Counted from the first letter of the stretch, positions 17,434 to 29,239 are shown. The stretch is 64,000 bases of DNA from a bacterium (GCA_037139975.1 JBAXFJ010000002.1:24373-88372); one strand, 5' to 3'. A program made the numbers and translations. The notes: generated from the sequence alone by a model not told the origin.

Positions 17434-17559
17434 CCTGTGTGGGGCAGCGTGGTCAGCTTGAGAAGCTGAGGACCAGGTGCTATTTGATGATCGGTGGAAG
17501 CGGTCTCCCCAGATAGTTGCGACCTACACTGACCACCTTGTTGGATATGGGAGCATACA

Positions 17560-17772
17560 AAGGGAAATTATGACTATCAAACCACGGTAGCATCAGTGAT
17601 TTCTGTTGCTCGTCGGGCTAAGGCAATATTCGAAAGTTCTGAAGCGCACGAAAAACGAGCATTTCTCAACTATTTACTTCAGAACCCGACTGTATCGGGC
17701 AAAACCCTTGTATTTACAATGCGAAAACCCTTTGATGCAGTACTCGAAATAGCTAACTGTCCTCTCGGGCTG
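17560..17772 (+). pseudogene. remnant of a large-serine-recombinase 3' end (copy A1, ~70 codons)
   Basis: Encodes ...AKAIFESSEAHEKRAFLNYLLQNPTVSGKTLVFTMRKPFDAVLEIANCPLG, matching the C-terminus of the truncated recombinase at 19.5-19.7 kb. 17633-17772 is ~97% identical to 19603-19740 at DNA level. No upstream recombinase body. Confidence 0.6.
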
Positions 17773-17849
17773 CCGTCTGCGGACAAGTTCAGAATGGTCG
17801 ATTGGGCGCAGATAAGCAAGGAAATCAGTGTGTTTGGTTTGTTTGTATA

Positions 17850-17892
17850 AAAGAAAAAGCCGCCACTTCGTACGAGACGAAGCTTTGGCTTT
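17850..17892 (-). terminator. rho-independent terminator after the 177-aa hypothetical gene
   Basis: On the minus strand: hairpin GCCAAAGCTTCG-tctcgta-CGAAGTGGC followed by TTTTTCTTTT. Confidence 0.5.
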
Positions 17893-17923
17893 CGTCCCGC
17901 CGAGATGGCGGTGGTTGTTGGCA

Positions 17924-18457
17924 CTACCAGTCTGCTGTGCCAAATGCGGGCGATGCGTCATTTAGCCAATGGGTAACCTGGCTTTTTCCTGGACCCACCT
18001 CGTAGCTACTCGGATACAGGGCGAACTGTACCGGCGTCCCATTGGGCATCCGAGTTGTGGCCGTGTACCACATAAGGCCCGTGTCAGTATAGGTCGCCAC
18101 ACACGTGAACTCTGTGGTCAGGAGGTAGTGATTCAGGTGCGCCAATTGGTCTGTGACCCAACGCTTGCCTTCCCGACGCACGATGGGATCCATGGTGATC
18201 ATAGTGAGCTTAGGTCCTGCCCACTCCCAAGTTACGTTGGTGGCACGGCGATGTTTGCCTTTGAACCACAAATCCACCGTGCACATATCGAGTCCGGGAA
18301 TCTGAGTGAGGTCGCCGAGGCTTTTCGGCAGATCGCCGTTCGGCATCAGAATGAACGTGGGAAGCTGCTTTCCGCTCGTAACACCATTGTTTGAGGTCCC
18401 GACGACCTTCCCGCTACCGCCCGCGAGTATCCGGTTGTCTCTCTGAGGTCTGTTCAC
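17924..18457 (-). CDS. hypothetical protein (island cargo, unknown function)
   Basis: 177-aa ORF with no recognisable motif. It sits between the two recombinase remnants. Confidence 0.4.
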   Translation of the reverse strand: MNRPQRDNRILAGGSGKVVGTSNNGVTSGKQLPTFILMPNGDLPKSLGDLTQIPGLDMCTVDLWFKGKHRRATNVTWEWAGPKLTMITMDPIVRREGKRWVTDQLAHLNHYLLTTEFTCVATYTDTGLMWYTATTRMPNGTPVQFALYPSSYEVGPGKSQVTHWLNDASPAFGTADW

Positions 18458-18734
18458 TGGGTGACTCCTTGTCTGAGGAAGTAGAAGTAACTGCTGTCTC
18501 TTGTAAGATAATACAATGTAATGTGATAAATAGCAAGTAGACGTGATGTTTCAAGCAATGAAATGAGTGTGTTTGATTCGATATGTTCTACTTCTGCACG
18601 GACAGTTGGCAATCAGATGTTTCCTTGCCCGTATCGGTAGTTACCCTAAACCAAGTTCATCTCTTTCTGTTGCCAACTGCAGTTGCATTTCAAGTTCATC
18701 TATTACGATTTGTATAGACTCATGGACGGGATTT

Positions 18735-19796
18735 GTGAGGATTGGTTATAGGAATATTGTACTGGATGCAGAGAAGCGATTGCGAAAGGATATAGTTCTT
18801 GACCCTGAGCGGGCGCACCTTATTGAACGTCTCTTTCAGTTGTACGCCTCTGGTAATTATTCGGTTACGACCGCTCTTGCTGAAATTACACGTCTCGGCC
18901 TCCGTAGCCACACTGGCAATCCTCTTGCTCGTAGCAATATTGAGACAATTCTAAAAGACCCTTTTTATTATGGAATGGCTCGCTCAAAAAAATACGGTAA
19001 CTACCCGCACCGCTATCCGCACATCATTACCCGAGAGCTGTTCGAGCAATGCCAAGAGGTATTTCGTGGCCGCCACAAATCGACCTCCAAGCCAGTATCC
19101 GACCTGTTTATGTTTAAAGGGCTTCTGCATTGTGCTAACTGCGGTTGCCTTATGACCCCCGAGCGTAAAAAGGGCTATCTTATCTACTATTCCTGCACGA
19201 ATGCCAGAGGAGTATGCAAGCGGTTATATATACCCGAACAAACCCTCCTAAAGCCCGTACAGAGCGTATTTGAGGCGTTTGAGGCAATGCCCAAGGAAGT
19301 TGAGGAGCGGCTCTTGAGCGAGCTTAGAGCTTCAAACGAGGGCGAAGTTGAGTACCACAAGAAAGAGCTTGTTCGCATCCGCGCCGAGTACGACCGGACG
19401 CAGACCCGCGCTAACTCGCTGATGGACTTGCTCATCGACAAGAGTATTACTAAGGATGATTATGACAAAAAACTGCAAGAGCTAAAAGATAAACAATACC
19501 GTTTGGACATCGAAGCCGAAGAGCATACTCGCGCCGACCATGACTACAAACTCACTATCTCACAAGTGTTTTCTCTTTCTCGAAGGATGGGCGAAATTTT
19601 TAAAAGTTCTGAGGTGCACGAAAAACGAGCATTTCTCAACTATTTACTTCAGAACCCGACTGTATCGGGCAAAACCCTTGTATTTACAATGCGAAAACCC
19701 TTTGATGCAGTACTCGAAATAGCTAACTGTCCTCTCGGGCTGTGTCTCCTGAACAAAATCCGAACTTTTTTCCAAAACAATCCAACTGCTGACTAA
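18735..19796 (+). pseudogene. large serine recombinase lacking its N-terminal catalytic resolvase domain (copy A2)
   Basis: From GYRNIVLDAEKRLRKD onward it aligns with residues ~150-500 of the intact recombinase at 27690..29198 (recombinase domain, Cys zinc ribbon CANCGC...C..C, coiled-coil). The first ~55 codons of ORF 18567..19796 are unrelated junk with stops upstream. The catalytic-Ser region is absent. Confidence 0.6.
19603..19740 (+). repeat. direct repeat of recombinase 3' end (A2), ~97% identical to 17633-17772 (A1)
   Basis: Direct comparison. Both copies end ...cctctcgggctg, and the flanks differ after that. Confidence 0.8.
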
Positions 19797-20011
19797 TCGC
19801 ACGCGCGGAGCGCGTGGTGACTTGAAACTGCCTCGTACGCTCCGATTGAGTGGTGAAGCGAACCAATGCGCCTCGGACACGCTCGCGGACTCGCGTGTGC
19901 AAAAACCAAAAAATTTCCTTGCATTTTCCTCGCGTCTCCTCCCCCCACCCCTCCACCGCGAAGCGGAAAAAGAAATGGAAAGGAAATTTTTGGTTTTGCT
20001 TCGCCGTTTCA
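19741..20011 (+). repeat. element X, copy 1: ~270-bp GC-rich sequence, perfect inverted repeat of 27204-27472
   Basis: The reverse complement of 27204-27472 matches 19741-20011 essentially base for base (tgtctcctgaacaaaatccgaac ... ggttttgcttcgccgtttca). It contains several hairpins (CACGCGC-GGA-GCGCGTG and ACACGC...GCGTGT) and a C-rich tract (cctccccccacccctccacc). Confidence 0.85.
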
Positions 20012-20354
20012 GACTACAAAATGAACATTGGTATTATATCGCTTTGTGATTATTGTGCGTTGTTCATTCCTCCGTCCTCACGGCGACCGAGGCGCCCTGC
20101 TATCCGAGCTTTGTGGTAACTCTAACGCTCGCGAACCACACACAACCGCCTACGCATAGCCCGCTCGCATTCGCTCACGCTGGCTGCTTCGGCGTTGCGT
20201 GTGTTCGCTTGGTGGCTTCGAGAGAGTCTTGTGGTGGCTCTAAAGAATATGGGTTGTGCTAGGGGCACAAATAGATCTGTATGTGCTTGCCCCACCCACC
20301 CAGTGCGCACACAAGCCCGCTCGCAAAGACGAGAGGGTACGAGCGGGAGCTCCC

Positions 20355-23300
20355 TTAATTTAATCCATCGGCCATCAATTCTGCTTGTTTCAAGACATTT
20401 TCAGTCGCAATCAACTGTTCGTCTGGTGGATAGCCATATTTATTCAAGATTCTTTTCACATCACGACGTAATTTCGCGCGAACATTTTCTTTTAGTGTCC
20501 AGTCAATCGTTGCATTGCCTTTGACACTTTTTAGCACCTCCATTGCAATAACTGCTAACTGCTTGTCGCCAAGCACCTCTTTCGCACTCTCACTGTTGGC
20601 AAGGGCATCGTAGAAAGCGAGCTCATCCTCGTTCAAATCCAAACCCTCTCCTCTTTTGTCTGACTGCCTGATGTCTTTAGCGATTTTTATCAATTCTTCT
20701 ATGACCTGTGCTGAAGTCAAAAGATTGTTTTGATACTTACGGATAGCATTCTCAAGCATTTCAGACAATTTCTTGCTCTGAATAAAGTTCTTTCTTGTTC
20801 TCGTTCTTATTTCGTCATTTAAGAGTTTCTTTAGAAGTTCAAGTGCAATATTTTTTCGCTCCATATGCCGTACTTCTTCCAAAAATTCATCTGAAAGAAT
20901 AGAAATGTCTGGCTTCTTAATTCCAGCCGCATCAAATACATCAACAATACCTTCAGAGACAACTGCCTTATCTACTATTTGCCGAATGGCTGTTTCAATT
21001 TCCGCATCAGACTTGCCTCCGCCTGATGGTTCAAACTTTGTCAGACGCGCTTTAATTGCTTGGAAAAAGCCAACTTCGTCTTTAAGTTCCATAGCTTTTA
21101 AATTTGGGACAGACAGCGCAAATGCTTGCGACAATAAACCAACTTGTTTTGTATATCTATTTTTTCCGTCTTCTAATCCCAAAATATGTTCTTGCGCCTC
21201 AAGAATAATCGTCAGTTTTGCTCGCGTGTCACTGACAAAGTATTTTTTATAATCAAAACCATTAAACATCTGCTCAACGATTTCAAACTTCTCCAGCAGA
21301 GTCGCCACGGCTTCATTTTGATCAAGAGTAGGTGCACCTTGTCCGCCACTTGCTGTATAGGTTGCGAGAGCCGACTTCAAATCAGAAGCAATGCCAATAT
21401 AGTCCACAATCAAACCGCCCGGCTTATCCTTAAACACCCTATTCACACGAGCAATGGCTTGCATAAGATTGTGTCCGCGCATTGGCTTGTCCACATACAT
21501 CGTATGTAAACACGGCACATCAAAACCAGTCAGCCACATATCCCGCACGATAACCAAACGAAGTGGGTCCTTCTCGTCCTTAAATCGCTCACCAATAGCT
21601 TTTCGGTCTTGTTTGCTTGTACTGTGCGTTTGCCAATTTTCAGGATCAGAAGATGAAGAAGTCATTACCACTTTTATTGCGCCTTTTTTAAAATCAGTAT
21701 CGTGCCAATCAGGACGAATTTTAATAATCTCTTCGTACAGTTCAACCGCAATCCGACGACTCATACACACAATCATTCCTTTACCTTCAAAAGCTTCTCG
21801 TCTTTTTTCAAAGTGATCCACCACATCAGCAGCAACTACAGCTAATCTGTCTCTGTGACCAACAATGGCCTCTAATTGTGCCCATTTTGCTTTCGCCTTG
21901 TCTTTTGCATTACTTTCTTCACACTCAGTAATTGATTCCACCTCTTCATCGAGTTTAGCCGCTTCTTCTGGCTTCAGATGCACTTTTGCCAGTCGTGATT
22001 CATAATAAATACGCACAGTCGCGCCATCTTCTACTGCTTGTGCGATATCATAAACATCAACATAGCTTCCGAACACCGCCGGTGTTGAGGCGTCTTCTTT
22101 TTCAATAGGTGTTCCGGTAAATCCAATAAACGATGCTGCAGGTAAAGCATCACGTAAATATTTTGCAAAGCCATATTTCGTAAATATTTCACCATCTTTC
22201 TCGGTGGTCTTTGCACCAAATCCATACTGACTACGATGCGCTTCATCAGCGATAACAATAATATTTTTTCTATCAGATAATAAATCAAAATTCACAGCAC
22301 CGTCTTCAGGGAAAAACTTTTGAATAGTTGAAAAGATAATTCCTCCACCAGCAACTTTCAAAAGCTCTTTCAAATTTTGTCGATTTTCAGCTTTTACTGG
22401 ATCTTGCCTGAGCAATTGCTTACATCCAGCGAAAGTATCGAAAAGCTGTTCGTCCAAATCGTTTCTGTCAGTAATAACCACAATCGTTGGATTGTTCAAT
22501 TTTAAAACTGTCTTTCCAGTATAGAAAACCATCGAGAGAGATTTTCCACTTCCTTGCGTATGCCACACGACGCCGGCTTTTCTGTCGCCGTTTTCACTAG
22601 ATGCCACAAGTGTCTTTTCAATCGCCTTATTCACCGCAAAATACTGATGATACGCCGCGATTTTTTTGACAGTAATAACCGATGCCAAACCAGTTTTTTC
22701 ATCTTCTTTTTTTGTTTTTTCAAATACCACAAAATACCCGACAAGATCCAGAAGCACTTGTTTGTTCAACATTCCCTTTGTCAGTGTTTCAATCTGTGGA
22801 ACAGTCGCCTTGTCTTCTTTGTATCCGTCGCTCGATTTCCACGCGAGGAAACGAGAAATATCCGATGAAATAGTTCCCATTTTGGCATCCAGACCATCAG
22901 ACGCCACCAAGGCGGCGTTATAGTAGAAAAGTGAAGGAATGGCGTTTTTGTAATTCTGTAGTTGCGTAAAGGCTTTGGCAACGGTAGCATTTTCATCCAC
23001 CGGATTTTTGAGTTCAATCACCACCAGTGGTAAACCATTTACAAACAAAACCACATCTGGTCGCTTTGTAATATTATTTTCCGTCACCGTGAATTGATTG
23101 CACACTATAAATTCATTGTTCTCGACATTGTCAAAGTCCACCAGTCGCACTTTGTCGCCCTTGATGCCATCCGCTCCCAACACTTCTACTTCTATGCCTT
23201 CGGTGAGCAGGCGATGAAAAGCTTCATTGTTGTCCATCAAGTTTTGGCTCGGCAAGTTGAGCACCATGCGGAGCGCCTGCTCTTTGGCCTCATCCGCAAT

Positions 23301-23468
23301 AGTGGGATTGAGAGTATCAATCGCATGCTTCAAGCGATTCCTCAAAACCACCTGTCCCAAATCAGTGCGTTCTAACTCTTGATCCTCCGGCGACAAATAC
23401 TGCCAACCTTGATTTTCCAAAAGCTCGATGACTAATTCTTCAATTGTTGATTCAAATATTTTAGTCAT
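20355..23468 (-). CDS. hsdR: Type I restriction enzyme, R subunit
   Basis: 1037 aa. SF2 helicase motifs (GSGKS-like [15 protein letters not shown] box [11 protein letters not shown]) and an N-terminal nuclease region, typical of HsdR. Confidence 0.9.
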
Positions 23469-23479
23469 AAATTATATTT

Positions 23480-24091
23480 TTACTTGTCATCAATTTCTCT
23501 GTTTTGAAAATCCACCAAAGCTTCTTTGTATGCTTCGTAATCTGTGGCATACAAAACCTTACTTGGTAATAATGTTATTTTACCAAAGGTAATTTTTTCA
23601 TAATCTTCATCAAATGAATCGTTAAAATCTGTATTCTCTTCATATTTGATTTGAATATCAAAAACAGCCTCTCGTATTTCTCTTTCTGATTTTGCTTGCT
23701 CAACTTTTTCAGTATATTCAATCTTTCTTAGGACCGAACGTTTTTCCATCTGGTTTTCTTCATGCTTCTGATAAAACTTTTTAGAAACAAGAGAAAGCCA
23801 CCATACAAACACAAAAGAAGAAGTAAATGGAATTATGAAAAGATGCAAAACACTTAATACATCAAAACGATACATTTGTGCCATGTAATCCACTTTCAGG
23901 ATTTGCTGCGTTTTCAGAATAGTCTCCTGGTCTGCAAAAAATAGTGTATATACAAACTTCCAATTTGTGACAATCCATGAAATAAGAAAATAAAAATACA
24001 TCGGACTAAAAAGTCGGTCTTGTATTATTTCCCCAGCTTTTTCAAAAGCTTTTGAAGTTGTTTCTGTAATTTTTGATAGTGAGTTTTCCAT
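23480..24091 (-). CDS. hypothetical two-TM membrane protein embedded in the Type I R-M operon (function unknown)
   Basis: 203 aa. TM1 SPMYFYFLISWIVTNWKFVYTLFF, TM2 VLSVLHLFIIPFTSSFVFVWWLSLV, then a charged ~100-aa C-terminal domain. 12 bp after hsdR and 4 bp before hsdS. Confidence 0.5.
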   Translation of the reverse strand: MENSLSKITETTSKAFEKAGEIIQDRLFSPMYFYFLISWIVTNWKFVYTLFFADQETILKTQQILKVDYMAQMYRFDVLSVLHLFIIPFTSSFVFVWWLSLVSKKFYQKHEENQMEKRSVLRKIEYTEKVEQAKSEREIREAVFDIQIKYEENTDFNDSFDEDYEKITFGKITLLPSKVLYATDYEAYKEALVDFQNREIDDK

Positions 24092-24094
24092 AAC

Positions 24095-25360
24095 TTAATT
24101 ATTAAACCCTTTAACACGAACCTCACCTTTCATTAATTTTGGCAAAAGGGTATCGCGGAGAGCGGAGAGGGTTTGGATTTGGAAACAATTACCAGATATT
24201 TTTTCCATAATAGGATCTGCTAACATAAAATATTTTTCTAATACACTTTTTGTTGGGATTAAAAAATCAAAATTATTGACATCATTTTTATTGATATGTT
24301 GCTGAGCCCCACCAGTGGCAGTATTTATAATATTTGAGACATTTTCCACCATCCAATAGTAAAGATAAGAAGAAGAAAATTTCTCATTCGGCAAAAGCCC
24401 TATAACTGATTGATTTCCGGCTGACTCAATTTCCAAGCGACTAATTTGCCCAAGAGTTGCTCCAGTAATTGCAATAACAACCGTTCCTTTCGGCATGAGT
24501 TTCGCTGCTGACTCCTCAAGAGCTTTTTTGGTGATATATGCGGATGGTTCATATATTCTAAAATCATTAACCTTTCCAGAATTTATCCAAGGAACTGTTC
24601 CGTCCTCCCAATACTCTTTTTTTTCTGTATTTGGAGTTCCTCCCAAAATTGTTTGTATTTCATCCCCCAACTTCCCAACTATCCATCCCTCTGGAATTTG
24701 GCTGAGTTCTAAATCAATCATTTTGCGGGTAGCACCGGGAAAATTAAAATTTACAAACCACTCTTTAAAAATCACTTGCGCAATAGCTTCAAGGGTTTTG
24801 TTCTGCTCACGTAAAAGCTCAACCTTGCTATCCAAAGACGACAACACTGCCGCAATGACACGCTGTTCGGAGAGTTCAGGAATCGTAAGTGAAAGACCCT
24901 TCAGCTTAGTAATAGTATATGCTTCTTGAGTAGAACCAATTTTTGCATATGATAAAATTTCTTTTCCCTGTGGAGAAACTATCCAATAAAAAAGAAATTT
25001 CGGAAGCAAATCTTTATAGTTTCGGAACCAAGTCAAATTTCCATCTTTAAAATAAAACTTGAGATCTCTTTCCACCAAGTAAGGATTCCCGAGTGTTCCA
25101 ACTGAGGTTAGTAAAATATCATTTTCTTCAGGGACTCCAAAATTATTTTTTATATCATTATATTTTTCTTCAGATATAAATAATTCAGTTGATATATTGT
25201 GTCCATTATATTTTTCTGTAATTTCTTTCCCTCTAAAAAATGGGATACCAAAAGTTTTGTATTCTTCGGCAAAAATCCTCTTTGACGACGTAATCTCTGC
25301 CACCTTTCCCAATGTCGTCATTTTCCAGCCTTTTGGAATTGTAGAAGTTTGATCTGCCAT
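24095..25360 (-). CDS. hsdS: Type I restriction-modification specificity subunit
   Basis: 421 aa with two target-recognition-domain halves separated by conserved repeat regions (LSEQRVIAAVLSSLDSKVELLREQNKTLEAIAQVIFKEWF and LPKLMKGEV). Confidence 0.85.
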   Translation of the reverse strand: MADQTSTIPKGWKMTTLGKVAEITSSKRIFAEEYKTFGIPFFRGKEITEKYNGHNISTELFISEEKYNDIKNNFGVPEENDILLTSVGTLGNPYLVERDLKFYFKDGNLTWFRNYKDLLPKFLFYWIVSPQGKEILSYAKIGSTQEAYTITKLKGLSLTIPELSEQRVIAAVLSSLDSKVELLREQNKTLEAIAQVIFKEWFVNFNFPGATRKMIDLELSQIPEGWIVGKLGDEIQTILGGTPNTEKKEYWEDGTVPWINSGKVNDFRIYEPSAYITKKALEESAAKLMPKGTVVIAITGATLGQISRLEIESAGNQSVIGLLPNEKFSSSYLYYWMVENVSNIINTATGGAQQHINKNDVNNFDFLIPTKSVLEKYFMLADPIMEKISGNCFQIQTLSALRDTLLPKLMKGEVRVKGFNN

Positions 25361-25362
25361 AA

Positions 25363-26910
25363 TTATTCTAAATTAAACCCAACATTTTTGAGTTGTTTTT
25401 TTATTTCTTCATCCAATTTCTTTTCTTCGGCCATCTGCTCTGCGAGTTTAGTGGTCAATCCAGCGATTTTGTCGGCAAACGGAATACCGTCGTCAATTTC
25501 ATCTTCTATACCGACATATCTTCCCGGAGTAAGAACAAAATTATGTTTGGTGATTTCCTCTATGCCCGCTGATTTGCAAAAACCTTTGATGTCTTTGTAT
25601 TTACCATCGCGCTTGCGCCACTCATGATAGGTGCCGGCGACTTTTGCCATATCGTCTTCTGAAAATTCACGGTGTGTTTTGTCTGCCATGTGGCCGACTT
25701 CGCTCGTGTCGATGAAAAGAATTTCTCCTGTGCGCTTCCTGTCGCCATTACCTGTGCGCTTGCGCGAGATAAACCAAATACACGCCGGAATGCCAGTGTT
25801 ATAAAAAAGCTGTTTCGGAAGTGCAACGATACAATCCACCAAATCATTTTCAATCAGTGACTTTCTAATATCACCCTCATTGTTGGTCTGACTGGAAAGT
25901 GAGCCGTTCGCAAGCACACACGCCATTACACCATGTGGTGAGAGGTGGTAGATCATGTGCTGAAGCCACGCATAGTTGGCATTTGAAGCTGGAGGCATAC
26001 CGTATTGCCAACGTGGATCATTTTGGAGAAGTTGCCCAGACCAGTCGCTGTCATTGAAAGGCGGATTTGCTAAGACAAAATCGGCTTTAAGGTCTTTATG
26101 TGTGTCATTCAAAAATGAGCCTTCAGTGTTCCATTTCACTTGTGAGCCATCAATGCCACGAATAGCAAGGTTCATTCGGCACAAGCGGTATGTTGTTTGG
26201 TTACTTTCTTGTCCGTAAATAGAAATATCCTCAACATTTCCTCGATGTTCTTTGATGAATTTTTCACTCATAATAAACATCCCGCCACTACCACAAGCTG
26301 GGTCATATACTCTGCCTTTGTATGGCTCAATCATTTCCACCATGATGCGGACGATTGATTTTGGCGTGTAGAATTGTCCGCCTTTTTTACCTTCAGCGTT
26401 TGCAAATTCACCAAGGAAATACTCATATACTCTACCGAGTAAATCTTTACTTTTTGCCGCTTCGGTACCAAGGGCGATATTGCCGACCATATCAATGAGT
26501 CCGCCAAGCGATGCTTTGTCTAGATTTGGGCGGGCGTATACTTTTGGCAAAATACCTTTGAGTGTCGGATTTTCCTTTTCTATTGCCTCCATGGCGTCGT
26601 CGAGGTCTTTTCCAATAGACGGAAGTTTGGCGCGTGAGTGAAGATATGACCAACGGGCAATTTGCGGAACGAAAAAGACATTTTCTGCGCGATATTCATC
26701 GGCGTCTTCAGGATTCGCTCCATAAAAATCATTACCACCGGCTTTTATCTTTGCATACAACTCTTCAAATGAATCCGAAATGTATTTGAGAAAGATGAGT
26801 CCAAGCACAATATGCTTATATTCTGCAGCGTCCATATTCTTGCGCAACTTATCTGCCGCCTTAAACAGCGTCTTCTCAAATGATTCTGTTTTGTTGTTTT
26901 CTTTTTTCAT
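25363..26910 (-). CDS. hsdM: Type I restriction-modification DNA methyltransferase (N6-adenine)
   Basis: 515 aa. NPPF motif ([12 protein letters not shown]), SAM-binding [10 protein letters not shown], and an HsdM N-terminal domain. Confidence 0.9.
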
Positions 26911-26912
26911 AA

Positions 26913-27110
26913 TTATTTCTGTATCAAGTCATCAACCTTGATTTCGAGTGCCTTGGCTATTTTAGACAAGGTGTCGATTGTGGGGTTTTGATTGACTCCA
27001 TTCTCAATCTTAACAATCGTATTGAGAGACAAATCGGCAAGTCGAGCGACTTTTTCGAGGGAATAGCCTTTTTCGGCTCTGATCTTTTTTAAATTGCTTG
27101 CAATGCTCAT
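26913..27110 (-). CDS. XRE-family helix-turn-helix transcriptional regulator (controller-like, first gene of the R-M operon)
   Basis: 65 aa: [32 protein letters not shown]. It ends 3 nt before the hsdM start. Confidence 0.7.
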
Positions 27111-27203
27111 ATGAAATCTTGTATAATTTAGTATATAGAATATAATATAAATTATGGATTCTTTACATTTAAATCATACCGAATTTATGAGCAAAAGTAA
27201 ATA

Positions 27204-27472
27204 TGAAACGGCGAAGCAAAACCAAAAATTTCCTTTCCATTTCTTTTTCCGCTTCGCGGTGGAGGGGTGGGGGGAGGAGACGCGAGGAAAATGCAAGGAA
27301 ATTTTTTGGTTTTTGCACACGCGAGTCCGCGAGCGTGTCCGAGGCGCATTGGTTCGCTTCACCACTCAATCGGAGCGTACGAGGCAGTTTCAAGTCACCA
27401 CGCGCTCCGCGCGTGCGATTAGTCAGCAGTTGGATTGTTTTGGAAAAAAGTTCGGATTTTGTTCAGGAGACA
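27204..27472 (-). repeat. element X, copy 2 (inverted relative to 19741-20011)
   Basis: See copy 1. The outer end joins a recombinase 3' end through the same ...ggctg|tgtctcctg junction. Confidence 0.85.
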
Positions 27473-27475
27473 CAG

Positions 27476-27606
27476 CCAAAATTCAGAATTCGTTTTTTCG
27501 CCAAAATTCGGAGCGTCGCAAAGCGACGCGACGGGGGTTTCCGCCAGAATTCGCCAAGGGTTTTTGAAATCCAAAAGAAGCGAGCGGGACGCGAGGCGGG
27601 GGTTTA
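27476..27606 (-). repeat. recombinase 3'-end repeat B' (perfect 131-bp inverted copy of 29040-29170)
   Basis: The reverse complement is identical to the last 131 bp of the intact recombinase gene (encoding NPRLASRSLLLDFKNPWRILAETPVASLCDAPNFGEKTNSEFWL). Here it continues in frame into X, giving the tail ...CLLNKIRTFFQNNPTAD. Confidence 0.85.
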
Positions 27607-27689
27607 TGATGAGTACATCATTCAAAACTTCGTTTTGCGAGCCAATCTGGAAGCGAATAACTATCAATATTTAACATAAACTTTTTTCT

Positions 27690-29198
27690 ATGAACAAATT
27701 CTTTCTTTACGCCAGAAAATCTACCGACGAGCCCGATCGTCAGATTTTGAGTATTGAATCGCAGATTGACGAGTTGAAAGAATTTGCAGAGCGAGAGCAG
27801 TTAGAGATTGTTGAAACTTTTGTTGAATCACAGACCGCTAAAGAGCCGGGCAGACCTATTTTCAACAATATGCTCTCGCTCATAGAAAAAGGCAAAGCGT
27901 CGGGAATTTTAGCTTGGCATCCCGATAGATTGGCAAGAAATAGTATTGATGGTGGAAAGATAATCTATCTGTGTGACCTCGGTAAAATTAAAGAGCTAAA
28001 ATTCCCGACATTTTGGTTCGACGCTACGCCACAAGGTAAGTTTATGTTAAATATTGCTTTTGGGCAGAGCAAATACTATGTAGATAATCTTTCAGAGAAT
28101 GTGAAGCGTGGACTTCGCCAAAAAGTAAGACGAGGCGAACAAAGTGGTCAAGCACCGACGGGATATTTGAATGACAAGTTGAACAAGAAAATTGTTCCCG
28201 ACATGGAGAGATTTCGCCTCGTCAAAAAAATGTTCGAAGTCTACGCTACTGGAAATTATTCTCTGAAAGATACGAGGAATTTGCTCGCCCAAAAGGGCTT
28301 GGTGTCTAAAAATGGTAAAGTTCTCACTATTTCAAACACGCAAATGATATTGAGAAATCCTTTTTACTATGGAATGTTTTTATTTAACAAAGAACTTTAC
28401 CAAGGAAAGCACGAGCCAGCGATTTCAAAGAAACTTTTTGATAAATGCGCGGAAGTATCGGCGAGGAATGCTCACCCGATGAAGCGAGGAATTAACAAGC
28501 ATGTTTTTCGCGGAATATTTTTGTGTGAAGAATGCGGTTGTGGCATAACCAGCGAAGTGCAAAAAGGTCATACCTATTATCGTTGTACCAAAAAGAAAGG
28601 TGTCTGCACACAAAAATATATCCGCGAAGAATTCCTCGCCGAACAAGCTAATGACATTATCAAAAAAGTTTCTTTGTCGTCAGAGTGGAAAGAATTCATG
28701 CTCGCTGAACTCGACAAGGAACAAGCGAGCAGTTTCCACTCTGACGCCCTTTTCGTTCAAAATCTGAAAAATCAAATCAAAAGTGTTGAGGAGACGCTAG
28801 ACAGGCTTCTTGACGCTCATTTGGACAGCGCCATTACGAGCGAGGAGTATATCGGGAAGAAGCAAAAACTCCTCAACCAAAAGATTGATTTTTCAGAGAA
28901 ATTGAATGATTTTGAACGAAAAGGTAATCGCTGGCTCGAACTTTCTAAACAATTCATTTTAGACAGTAACCAAGCCATAATTATCGCTTCCGAAGAAAAT
29001 CTCGAAGCCAAAAGAGATTTTCTTAAAAAGATTGGCTCGAACCCCCGCCTCGCGTCCCGCTCGCTTCTTTTGGATTTCAAAAACCCTTGGCGAATTCTGG
29101 CGGAAACCCCCGTCGCGTCGCTTTGCGACGCTCCGAATTTTGGCGAAAAAACGAATTCTGAATTTTGGCTGGGATACAGGGATTCGAACCCCGATTAA
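27690..29198 (+). CDS. large serine recombinase (integrase), full length
   Basis: 502 aa. N-terminal resolvase catalytic domain (YARKSTDEPDRQ...SIESQ), recombinase domain, Cys zinc ribbon (CEECGC...C..C) and a C-terminal coiled-coil. The last 11 codons overlap tRNA-Gln on the opposite strand. Confidence 0.85.
   Translation: MNKFFLYARKSTDEPDRQILSIESQIDELKEFAEREQLEIVETFVESQTAKEPGRPIFNNMLSLIEKGKASGILAWHPDRLARNSIDGGKIIYLCDLGKIKELKFPTFWFDATPQGKFMLNIAFGQSKYYVDNLSENVKRGLRQKVRRGEQSGQAPTGYLNDKLNKKIVPDMERFRLVKKMFEVYATGNYSLKDTRNLLAQKGLVSKNGKVLTISNTQMILRNPFYYGMFLFNKELYQGKHEPAISKKLFDKCAEVSARNAHPMKRGINKHVFRGIFLCEECGCGITSEVQKGHTYYRCTKKKGVCTQKYIREEFLAEQANDIIKKVSLSSEWKEFMLAELDKEQASSFHSDALFVQNLKNQIKSVEETLDRLLDAHLDSAITSEEYIGKKQKLLNQKIDFSEKLNDFERKGNRWLELSKQFILDSNQAIIIASEENLEAKRDFLKKIGSNPRLASRSLLLDFKNPWRILAETPVASLCDAPNFGEKTNSEFWLGYRDSNPD
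29040..29170 (+). repeat. recombinase 3'-end repeat B (partner of 27476-27606)
   Basis: See B'. The copy ends ...ttttggctg, where the last bases are the complement of the tRNA-Gln CCA, discriminator and acceptor end. Confidence 0.85.
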
Positions 29199-29239
29199 AG
29201 GCTTCAAAGGCCTCTGTCCTACCATTAGACGATATCCCA
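29166..29239 (-). tRNA. tRNA-Gln (anticodon UUG), 74 nt with encoded CCA
   Basis: Reverse complement TGGGATATCGTCTAATGGTAGGACAGAGGCCTTTGAAGCCTTTAATCGGGGTTCGAATCCCTGTATCCCAGCCA. U1:A72 acceptor pair typical of tRNA-Gln, 7-bp acceptor stem, D-loop GG, anticodon loop CUUUGAA, T-loop TTCGAAT. Confidence 0.85.

Follow-up and report, generated by a model that had tools for sequence, protein, structure and literature searches.

This study concerns a 64,000-nucleotide stretch of bacterial DNA (GCA_037139975.1 JBAXFJ010000002.1:24373-88372; referred to as the window), part of a SPAdes short-read metagenome contig of 173.8 kb (ENA ERZ4222710 NODE_24), in which a Type I restriction-modification (R-M) operon and a large serine recombinase (LSR) gene lie beside tRNA-Gln. 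Positions 19743-29171 are probably (at about 80%, in our estimate) one intact integrative island of a family from the Candidate Phyla Radiation (CPR), mobilised by the LSR and inserted at the 3' end of tRNA-Gln, in which a second attachment site (attP) is retained internally. Each element of this type would bear two inverted attP regions of ~400 bp, composed of the 3' end of the LSR gene (B, 132 bp), a short core and a segment referred to as X (269 bp). Integration would split one of them into attL (older end, GGCTG and X; 19742) and attR (recombinase 3' end, GGCTG and tRNA; 29171); the other would remain unsplit, in inverted orientation, at 27204-27604, with the XRE-cargo operon on one side and the LSR promoter on the other. 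With one attP split and one intact and inverted, the operon would therefore look enclosed by X, and the LSR gene by B.

A search for repeats, both within 15-32 kb and throughout the window, gave three repeat pairs only: a direct pair A1/A2 (17570-17772 and 19540-19742; 203 nt, 87% identity), an inverted pair X/X' (19715-20011 and 27204-27500, in the extent given by the repeat finder), and an inverted pair B'/B (27473-27604 and 29040-29171; 132 nt, 132/132 identical); no further copies of the A, B or X repeats were found within the 64 kb. By base-by-base extension, X (19743-20011) was the reverse complement of 27204-27472 at 269/269 positions, and the perfect repeat reached 274 bp once the common GGCTG was counted (19738-20011 and 27204-27477). 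This 274-bp repeat brackets the XRE-hsdM-hsdS-orf203-hsdR operon, and the 132-bp repeat, a perfect inverted copy of the gene's own 3' end, brackets the intact LSR gene. The elements listed in an initial annotation of this DNA, including two perfect inverted X copies of ~270 bp, were all present, 1-3 nt from the positions given there; the annotation had also described the operon as lying on one strand and as AT-rich compared with its flanks, in agreement with its location on the minus strand and its GC content of 0.40 (0.51-0.53 in the flanks). The description of X as GC-rich was correct relative to the island but not in absolute terms (0.51, like the flanks), and three features had been overlooked: the location of the LSR gene within its own inverted repeat, the family-wide conservation of the arrangement, and the partly coding nature of X.

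GGCTG, the complement of the CAGCC(A) 3' end of tRNA-Gln, was read at all four junctions (17772, 19742, 27473 in inverted orientation, and 29171). A1-GGCTG is followed by CCGTCTGCGG at J1 (17772), A2-GGCTG by TGTCTCCTGAAC at J2 (19742; core at 19738-19742, plus strand), B-GGCTG by the same TGTCTCCTGAAC at the internal junction (27473, minus strand), and B-GGCTG by GGATACAGGG, the start of the tRNA body, at J4 (29171; core at 29167-29171); the same core stands in direct orientation at both ends of the island. The target, tRNA-Gln(TTG) at 29166-29239 on the minus strand, was intact according to ARAGORN and Rfam (RF00005, 66 bits), and its 3'-terminal CAGCCA comes from the island. The intact LSR gene (27690-29198, plus strand) encodes 502 amino acids with the Pfam domains Resolvase, Recombinase and Zn_ribbon_recom: a catalytic domain (PF00239, E = 3e-22, residues 5-150), in which the motif YARKS(11)T with the serine nucleophile was recognised by sequence reading, and the C-terminal domains PF07508 (E = 9.5e-14) and PF13408 (zinc ribbon, E = 9.7e-8). 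By sequence comparison, the nearest solved structures match the catalytic domain only (E about 1e-6). The last 8 codons of the gene in the window (GYRDSNPD and stop) are antisense tRNA-Gln, and its upstream region (27605-27689, plus strand) is kept in close relatives.

From these sequences, the junction of B with the tRNA would be attR and that of A2 with X would be attL. The P arm of this putative attR is B itself (29040-29171, plus strand), ending with the core, and the P' arm of attL is the left X copy (19743-20011, plus strand), which consists of 17 tail codons and a stop (CLLNKIRTFFQNNPTAD*, 19743-19796) and then 215 nt of non-coding sequence. The internal inverted combination of LSR end, core and X is predicted to be an unrecombined, intact attP: its P arm is B' (27473-27604, minus strand), an inverted copy of the last 44 LSR codons that starts with CAGCC on the plus strand (27473-27477), and its P' half is X' (27204-27472, minus strand), with the tail codons and the non-coding part. 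The initial annotation had taken the recombinase end next to the tRNA for an integrated att junction, which fits attR with an intact tRNA-Gln, and the recombinase end next to X for an attP-like site, where the case became stronger than claimed, as X continues the LSR reading frame. Its first reading, a serine-integrase island at tRNA-Gln with tandem copies, was essentially right, given the attL/attR anatomy and the older elements to the left.

To place the window among its relatives, the LSR was searched against one genome per GTDB species (>560 relatives) and against JGI/ENA metagenome contigs (>584); 160 loci were analysed, and automated scoring was applied to those with enough sequence. The core common to all junctions, in the window and in relatives, was (G)CTG. 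The crossover would thus fall within CTG/GGCTG, that is, the tRNA discriminator base and the last bases of the acceptor stem, and in the shortest case attP and the bacterial site (attB) have only CTG in common (the discriminator and two acceptor-stem bases). Wherever X starts, an arm of ~31 nt (TGTCTCCTGAACAAAATCCGAACTTTTTTCC) follows the core. Dyad symmetry was considered for attP: both arms contain a TTTTGG(N)GAAAAAA-type motif, but its centre is 3-4 nt off the common core. To the left of the distal X copy, the sequences of relatives were unrelated from genome to genome, often contained a terminator hairpin, and ended with GCTG, CCTG or ACTG; since this is native chromosomal flank, that junction is attL, and the flank arm of attB appears to be sequence-independent.

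The LSR shares the Resolvase, Recombinase and zinc-ribbon architecture of LSR elements and prophages such as phiC31, Bxb1, TP901-1, SPbeta (SprA), SCCmec (CcrAB) and Tn4451 (TnpX), and attP × attB recombination with a 2-bp staggered crossover is predicted for it from its class. As in phiC31-type elements, the junctions have a short common core, and the element is small with its own integrase near one end. On the other hand, the target here is a tRNA 3' end, attP lies within the LSR open reading frame (ORF), the attB arm is apparently sequence-independent, and a second intact inverted attP is kept together with a duplicate LSR 3' end. No description of a second inverted attP in known LSR systems was found in full-text literature searches, nor do we know of one otherwise; the same searches turned up neither this LSR family nor any LSR element that carries an inverted attP internally. 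The family is therefore apparently undescribed: the LSR island is a known type, whereas the double-inverted architecture is conserved, unusual and widespread in CPR bacteria. The conserved inverted attP and the duplicated LSR 3' end stand outside the standard picture of serine integrases.

An attachment site within the recombinase gene

All of the 58 distinct P' arms were open in the LSR frame across the core for at least 14 codons, followed by a stop, and the remaining two frames were open in 6/58 and 34/58 arms. Synonymous codon differences from the consensus amounted to 109 of 298 in the LSR frame, compared with 49 of 242 and 14 of 261 in the other two, and positional entropy was highest at codon position 3, followed by positions 1 and 2. 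A tail peptide, (C/S)(L/V)LN(K/E)IRTFF(Q/R/K)xNP(D/N)..., was conserved, often ending with -DADF or -DAEF; a tail of like kind (RCFLDEVRTLYEQNPQDFAD) was found in the clade at tRNA-Ser. The open frame, the conserved peptide and the synonymous excess together indicate that X is coding and that attP therefore lies within the LSR ORF. The native gene order would be recombinase body, B, core and X, with a tail of 15-19 residues encoded by the first ~55 nt of X. Integration would then swap the last 17 codons (CLLNKIRTFFQNNPTAD here) for the 8 antisense-tRNA codons GYRDSNPD, and the internal site would be a complete inverted spare (the last 44 codons, core, tail and stop) just upstream of the LSR gene. 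Many X tails end acidic-hydrophobic after a variable linker (-NPDADF, -DAEF or -DSEF; e.g. 19743-19796, P0043, P0079 and P0085), and we take these ends to resemble the SSB-like C-terminal tips that bind partner proteins.

An attP inside a gene has precedents. The Mx8 and SSV-type systems also target tRNA genes, and in mycobacteriophage BPs integration changes the C-terminus and the behaviour of a protein. IntP of the Myxococcus phage Mx8 has attP within its gene, and integration makes a new 3' end of the integrase gene (PMC6070905), while in the archaeal "suicidal" integrases of the SSV type, integration splits the gene into two pseudogenes (PMC7253208). These are tyrosine recombinases without a spare copy, whereas the serine LSR considered here would lose a 17-residue tail only, and an inverted spare is kept. 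In the integration-dependent immunity of BPs and its relatives, attP is located inside a gene whose 3' end would be altered by integration (PMC4557955); there, the remodelled gene encodes the repressor and integration depends on a tyrosine recombinase, whereas in the present family the LSR gene itself would be remodelled, with a putative functional effect. With an attP inside its ORF and a spare copy at hand, the LSR gene is a candidate on which remodelling of a recombinase gene by the reaction that it encodes can be put to the test.

Two candidates concerning the tail were rejected. A small protein expressed through the internal site (an 82-amino-acid ORF with a TTG start, 27667-27419, corresponding to the C-terminal 44 residues of the LSR and the tail) was not supported: among 91 loci, the frame upstream of B' was open for 1-103 codons, with no start codon in 23 and ATG in 19, and the extension was not coding-like. 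The numbers of X-tailed and tRNA-tailed proteins were considered as a proxy for the state of the element (~13 of 120 cluster representatives were X-tailed), and this ratio was not used because many of them are on contigs of ~2 kb or shorter, where the B repeat makes the assembly path ambiguous. When X-tailed proteins were traced to longer contigs, L163 was a clean, double-flipped integrated element, and L164 and L165 were ambiguous.

Occurrence in the family and orientation of the two segments

The matches in GTDB genomes were almost all metagenome-assembled genomes (MAGs) of Patescibacteria/CPR. LSRs 91-97% identical to that of the window occurred in MAGs labelled Nomura-, Lloyd-, Taylor- and Doudnabacteria and Minisyncoccia, and the 90%-identity cluster contained 252 members, some of them from Wildermuthbacteria and Pacebacteria MAGs; the whole family comprised at least 7,988 protein clusters at E <= 1e-50 in a protein search. 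An inverted copy of the LSR 3' end (84-171 bp, mostly 98-100% identical) was located upstream of the LSR gene in 78/82 loci, and a second inverted repeat (140-409 bp), adjoining B' and bracketing a variable segment of 1.6-7.4 kb, in 27/36. The LSR 3' end was antisense to a tRNA in 101/105 loci, with an overlapping stop codon in 95, and the targets were tRNA-Gln (61, both anticodons), tRNA-Ser (39, a clade ~55% identical) and tRNA-Asp (1). The internal site was ~85-97 nt away from the LSR start in the Gln clade, compared with ~141-146 nt in the Ser clade. In the sister clade (~55% identical; many of L059-L081 and L126-L161), the double inverted repeat was found at tRNA-Ser genes with four anticodons, and there were single cases at tRNA-Asn and tRNA-Asp (L028, L031; L148). 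Since other tRNA targets carry the same double repeat, target switching keeps the architecture.

The ultra-small CPR bacteria (Patescibacteria) represent a large and mostly uncultured part of bacterial diversity, in which gene movement is little understood. The family mostly carries restriction and defence genes, and closely similar LSRs recur across CPR lineages; it is likely a main route by which streamlined CPR genomes acquire defence systems. The universal tRNA-Gln target and the apparently sequence-independent flank arm also make it a candidate genetic tool for these bacteria.

Many related contigs stopped 140-360 bp upstream of the LSR gene, and CPR MAG contigs often ended in or just past the repeat there (L003, L005, L006, L008, L010, L012, L015 and many metagenome loci), which indicates that the repeats break short-read assemblies; the islands and their defence cargo are probably truncated, lost or under-represented systematically in short-read MAGs. 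Such breaks, and the origin of the window from a short-read SPAdes contig, could also suggest that the double repeat is an artefact, produced when integrated and excised forms were wrongly joined. In a related explanation, the LSR unit, formally like an insertion sequence with 132-bp terminal repeats, and the cargo unit would be transposon-like units with terminal repeats (B'...B and X...X') and a serine transposase. We regard both versions as scarcely credible. A mixture of integrated and excised forms cannot yield the adjacencies 27203/27204 and 27604/27605, and the double repeat recurred in dozens of assemblies produced independently and by several routes (MEGAHIT, SPAdes, IDBA, JGI), so that it is not an assembly duplication. 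As for transposition, the LSR unit was at a tRNA 3' end in 101/105 loci, the readable outer flanks of the inverted 3'-end copy were the P'/X arm (or the tRNA in loci with a flipped recombinase), no second copy was present in the window, and the junctions follow the logic of attL, attP and attR.

In the relatives with the common LSR orientation, the XRE gene adjoined X' in 26 of 27 scorable cases, and the LSR gene was directed toward the tRNA in about 95% of loci (exceptions: L014, L023, L047, L091 and L097). Flips of the cargo only, overlooked by automated scoring, were found in L002 and L061. The LSR-flipped elements that could be scored for both segments had the cargo flipped too: L163, a clean integrated element of 12.6 kb with chromosomal genes on both sides, and L023, in which tRNA-Gln adjoins B' and the contig stops within the distal X copy. 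These two show an X-tailed LSR gene directly, and L014, L047, L091 and L097 were flipped but cut at the contig end. A double flip would be expected if a circle with two attP sites integrated via the other site, and cargo-only flips need a separate inversion. Inversions thus occur on evolutionary time scales. A single orientation in 95% of independent assemblies is, however, not what unrestricted flip-flop or a phase switch would produce.

The perfect inverted repeats around the operon, their location beside a recombinase and the cargo-flipped relatives L002 and L061 might suit the second reading of the initial annotation, in which inversion by the LSR would switch either the entire Type I R-M operon or a promoter located in X. 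This reading seems highly improbable to us. The XRE operon has both its promoter-like hexamers (27201-27144, minus strand) and its first gene inside the X-bounded segment, which also led us to reject an inverton, and X contained no promoter-like site except for a weak one astride its inner edge, antisense to hsdR. Both ends of the segment face identical X, so that a flip changes no neighbour and alters no junction relevant to expression; furthermore, the same repeats bracket a P-type ATPase, inositol monophosphatase or methyltransferases in relatives, and 26 of 27 scorable relatives share one cargo orientation. A shufflon of hsdS was also rejected: there is a single hsdS gene (24095-25360), which makes shuffling of specificity impossible, and the inverted repeats of the window are all outside the operon. 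Although the hsdS shufflons of Streptococcus, Mycoplasma and Bacteroides likewise combine a Type I R-M operon with a site-specific recombinase and inverted repeats, they invert within or between multiple hsdS genes, whereas here the repeats are located outside the operon and its promoter, and R-M is one of many cargoes.

At one further locus (L117:9700-11560; Ga0101944_10005799), a degraded LSR gene (419-amino-acid ORF) was found between tRNA-Gln(CTG) and tRNA-Gln(TTG) in inverted orientation, with P arms of two different subtypes. It looks like a rearrangement between two occupied tRNA-Gln loci, or like recombination of the internal attP with a second attB, and resembles the integrase-linked flipping of chromosomes that has been reported in Thermococcales (PMC5495485).

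Identity of the repeat copies, a candidate free circle and possible roles of the spare site

Among elements whose LSRs are at least 89% identical to that of the window, the X copies were 96% identical within an element and 66% between elements, and the B copies 96% and 91%, respectively. Since identity is higher within than between elements, the repeat copies are homogenised, for which gene conversion between the inverted repeats would be the simplest reading; the distal part of X seems to move together with the cargo and not with the LSR gene. The third reading of the initial annotation, a composite element whose termini are maintained identical by ongoing inversion or gene conversion, was therefore partly supported, by these values and by the rare flipped variants. 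In the mechanism proposed here, the homogenised copies would occasionally mediate inversion. Excision by attL × attR recombination would produce a circle of ~9.4 kb, in which two inverted attP sites part a cargo arc from a recombinase arc; integration via the attP at the LSR 3' end would give the common orientation, and integration via the other attP the rare double-flipped form.

A candidate for this circle was found in L141 (7,388 nt, no tRNA), which closes through a 42-nt terminal overlap to 7,346 bp. Its order was an X-tailed LSR gene, B-core-X, a cargo gene of 1,336 amino acids with XRE, X'-core-B', and the LSR gene again; it contained two inverted attP regions of 388 bp, the LSR had 511 amino acids with the X tail, and XRE was divergent from the LSR gene. 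L140 was similar, with an overlap of 25 nt, and terminal overlaps were found in these two only. The form of L141 is suggestive of the predicted excision product. Its geometry, with two arcs separated by long inverted repeats that contain recombination sites and are kept identical in concert, is like that of the yeast 2-micron plasmid (Flp/FRT) and of plastid inverted repeats; the likeness is geometric. Unlike the 2-micron plasmid, the island has no replication genes, and the ~95% in one orientation argue against a free flip-flop. We know of no LSR that recombines attP with attP.

Several points weigh against the island with an internal attP as described above. Excision, the circle and inversion in this population are predictions from sequence alone, and the circles of L141 and L140 could be mere paths traced across an assembly graph in which the repeats had collapsed, overlaps of 42 and 25 nt being atypical. 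Scans, which were aimed at recombinase relatives, recovered no empty attB for this host, while the native flanks at attL of relatives would imply that unoccupied sites exist; the analysis identified no recombination directionality factor. As the window belongs to an unclassified MAG, its CPR host was deduced from the relatives. Equal use of the two attP sites of a circle predicts that about half of the elements are double-flipped, whereas only about 5% are: the sites may be non-equivalent in vivo, the flipped state may be selected against, or the step through a two-attP circle may be wrong. The bias itself speaks for unequal use of the two sites, or else for instability of the state in which the tail is retained. 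To our knowledge, canonical LSRs do not recombine attP with attL or attR, because of which enzyme-driven inversion is unproven, and homologous recombination is equally possible as the inverter.

Several roles were weighed for retention of the spare attP: a second usable site on the circle, a spare 3' end that restores the tail, an operator or decoy, and homology arms for cargo exchange. It is possible, although rather doubtful, that the twin inverted attP is a functional design by which (a) the LSR rewires its own C-terminus and (b) the cargo is exchangeable as a cassette. If (a) were true, the spare 3' end and attP would rebuild a full-length LSR through inversion of the gene body or integration via the other site, and thereby lock or unlock mobility. 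If (b) were true, the presence of B-core-P' on both sides of the cargo would allow exchange of modules, and the association of the distal part of X with the cargo would be accounted for.

A narrower form of (a), which we judged unlikely, holds that the gene body, inverted between its flanking B' and B either by its own product or through homologous recombination, is rejoined to the native X tail without excision. The LSR would then switch between a locked, tRNA-tailed state and a fully active one, and so control mobility; this would answer the problem of the "suicidal" integrase. The location of attP within the ORF, conservation of the tail at the protein level and the position of the LSR gene exactly within a perfect inverted repeat of its own 3' end (78/82 loci) are consistent with it, as are the natural X-tailed forms with a flipped recombinase (L023 and L163), a bias to the tail-swapped orientation that fits a stable locked state, and the precedents of integrases altered by their own integration, Mx8 (PMC6070905) and the SSV type (PMC7253208). 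However, an effect of the tail on activity is conjecture, the tRNA-tailed genes are intact and highly conserved and may be fully functional, and the duplication of X on the far side of the cargo is left unexplained. L023 and L163 are, moreover, also cargo-flipped, which fits integration via the other attP at least as well.

In yet another explanation, the internal attP serves as an operator or decoy: the LSR binds its own site between divergent promoters, with autoregulation or insulation as the result, and the identity of the copies is a by-product of gene conversion. Its constant position between two divergent core genes (~85-97 nt and ~141-146 nt from the LSR start, as given above) agrees with this, and so do repeat limits that differ by subfamily (84-171 and 140-409 nt), as predicted for drift by gene conversion. 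A site of ~50 bp would be enough for such a purpose, yet 84-171 bp (B) and 140-409 bp (X) are kept in both clades, and elements with a flipped cargo or recombinase look intact though their site is no longer between two promoters; we consider this reading improbable.

Cargo operon, non-coding segments and older elements

The segment between the X copies of the window contains, all on the minus strand, an XRE-type helix-turn-helix gene (26913-27110; Pfam HTH_3) as the first gene of the operon, hsdM (25363-26910; N6_Mtase and HsdM_N), the single specificity gene hsdS with two Methylase_S stretches (24095-25360), orf203 (23480-24091; no Pfam family) between hsdS and hsdR, and hsdR (20355-23468; HSDR_N, SWI2_SNF2 and T1RH-like_C). 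By eye, the product of orf203, an accessory gene of the Type I system, has a hydrophobic N-terminal half and an acidic C-terminus. A genomic island with Type I R-M in a Paceibacteria MAG has been reported, with no mention of a recombinase, tRNA or repeats (PMC12455944). In relatives, the segment nearly always starts with an XRE gene encoding 48-81 amino acids, adjoining X' and divergent from the LSR gene, which is absent from a few cargoes (e.g. L044, L048 and L058). The cargo comprised Type I/III-like, Type IIG (Eco57I/MmeI-like) and GmrSD-like enzymes, N4/N6 and C5 methyltransferases and HpaII, as well as a P-type ATPase, inositol monophosphatase, reverse transcriptase and unknown proteins. 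Since the cargo varies among relatives, R-M is not obligatory: the R-M operon would be interchangeable cargo behind the XRE gene of the family, and the conserved core would consist of the LSR, XRE and the two attP regions. The cargo of L164 (2008-8013) included XRE, a fusion of RadC with a C5-methyltransferase, an HpaII-type endonuclease and a reverse transcriptase (RVT_1), and may be a retron or another defence system based on reverse transcriptase, on the same element type. A phage origin of the family was rejected, as there was one distant relative only in IMG/VR (48% identity) and the cargo is without virion or replication genes.

The region upstream of the XRE operon (27111-27203, minus strand), with a GC content of 0.18 and the promoter-like hexamers described above, is inside the X-bounded segment. 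The best promoter-like match (27098-27127, plus strand; TTGCAA-18-TATAAT, 10/12) runs from the 5' end of XRE via X' and B' toward the LSR gene; if this promoter were used, the 5' leader of the LSR mRNA would be perfectly complementary to its own last 132 nt. On the other side of the cargo, a non-coding stretch 3' of hsdR (20012-20354; 0.55 GC) is partly kept in close relatives. Together with the non-coding part of X, it forms ~560 nt (19797-20354; 0.51-0.55 GC, with a partial inverted copy at 27204-27418) in an otherwise AT-rich island, partly kept beside the 3' end of the cargo in L002, L004, L011, L027 and L049. X and the adjoining stretch fold better than shuffled sequences (z = -3.9), and an Rfam scan of 17-30 kb (E <= 1) for known RNAs in or near X gave the tRNA only; the ~560 nt might represent a structured RNA, or else contain binding sites or terminators.

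To the left of the island, a truncated A-type LSR gene (18567-19796, plus strand) contains the Pfam domains Recombinase and Zn_ribbon only, without the catalytic domain. It was 30% identical to residues 152-472 of the intact LSR, the homology beginning at ~18726 (residue 152), and its 3' end (A2, 19540-19742) reaches the core, from which the frame enters X; two diverged LSR genes, one truncated and one intact, thus supply the A and B ends, as initially proposed. A1 (17551-17772, plus strand), the oldest layer, corresponds to the last ~74 codons of an A-type LSR and ends with GGCTG at J1, with 73% identity to residues 319-399 of the truncated LSR (tblastn). Its frame runs on (ORF 17596-17850) into a diverged P'-type arm of the A2 element (17773-17850, plus strand), with the in-frame tail PSADKFRMVDW...*, in the manner of an attP-like joint; DKFR in this tail corresponds to NKIR of the family tail. 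The decayed A2 element also contains an ORF of 177 amino acids (17924-18457, minus strand; 0.56 GC, no Pfam match), possibly leftover cargo, which is overlapped by an ORF of 141 amino acids on the opposite strand.

Where relatives have native flank as the left arm of attL, the window has the 3' end of an older LSR gene, which indicates serial insertion at the same tRNA. In the simplest history, A2 (17773-19742) and A1 (17551-17772) would be two older, decayed LSR islands, and three successive insertions would each have shifted the previous element leftward; an attB without a conserved flank arm would permit insertion beside a resident element. Tandem recombinase remnants were also found in L004, L139 and L146. 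The original terminator of the tRNA probably corresponds to a terminator-like hairpin at 17448-17429 (minus strand), which places the left edge of the whole stack at ~17.45-17.55 kb.

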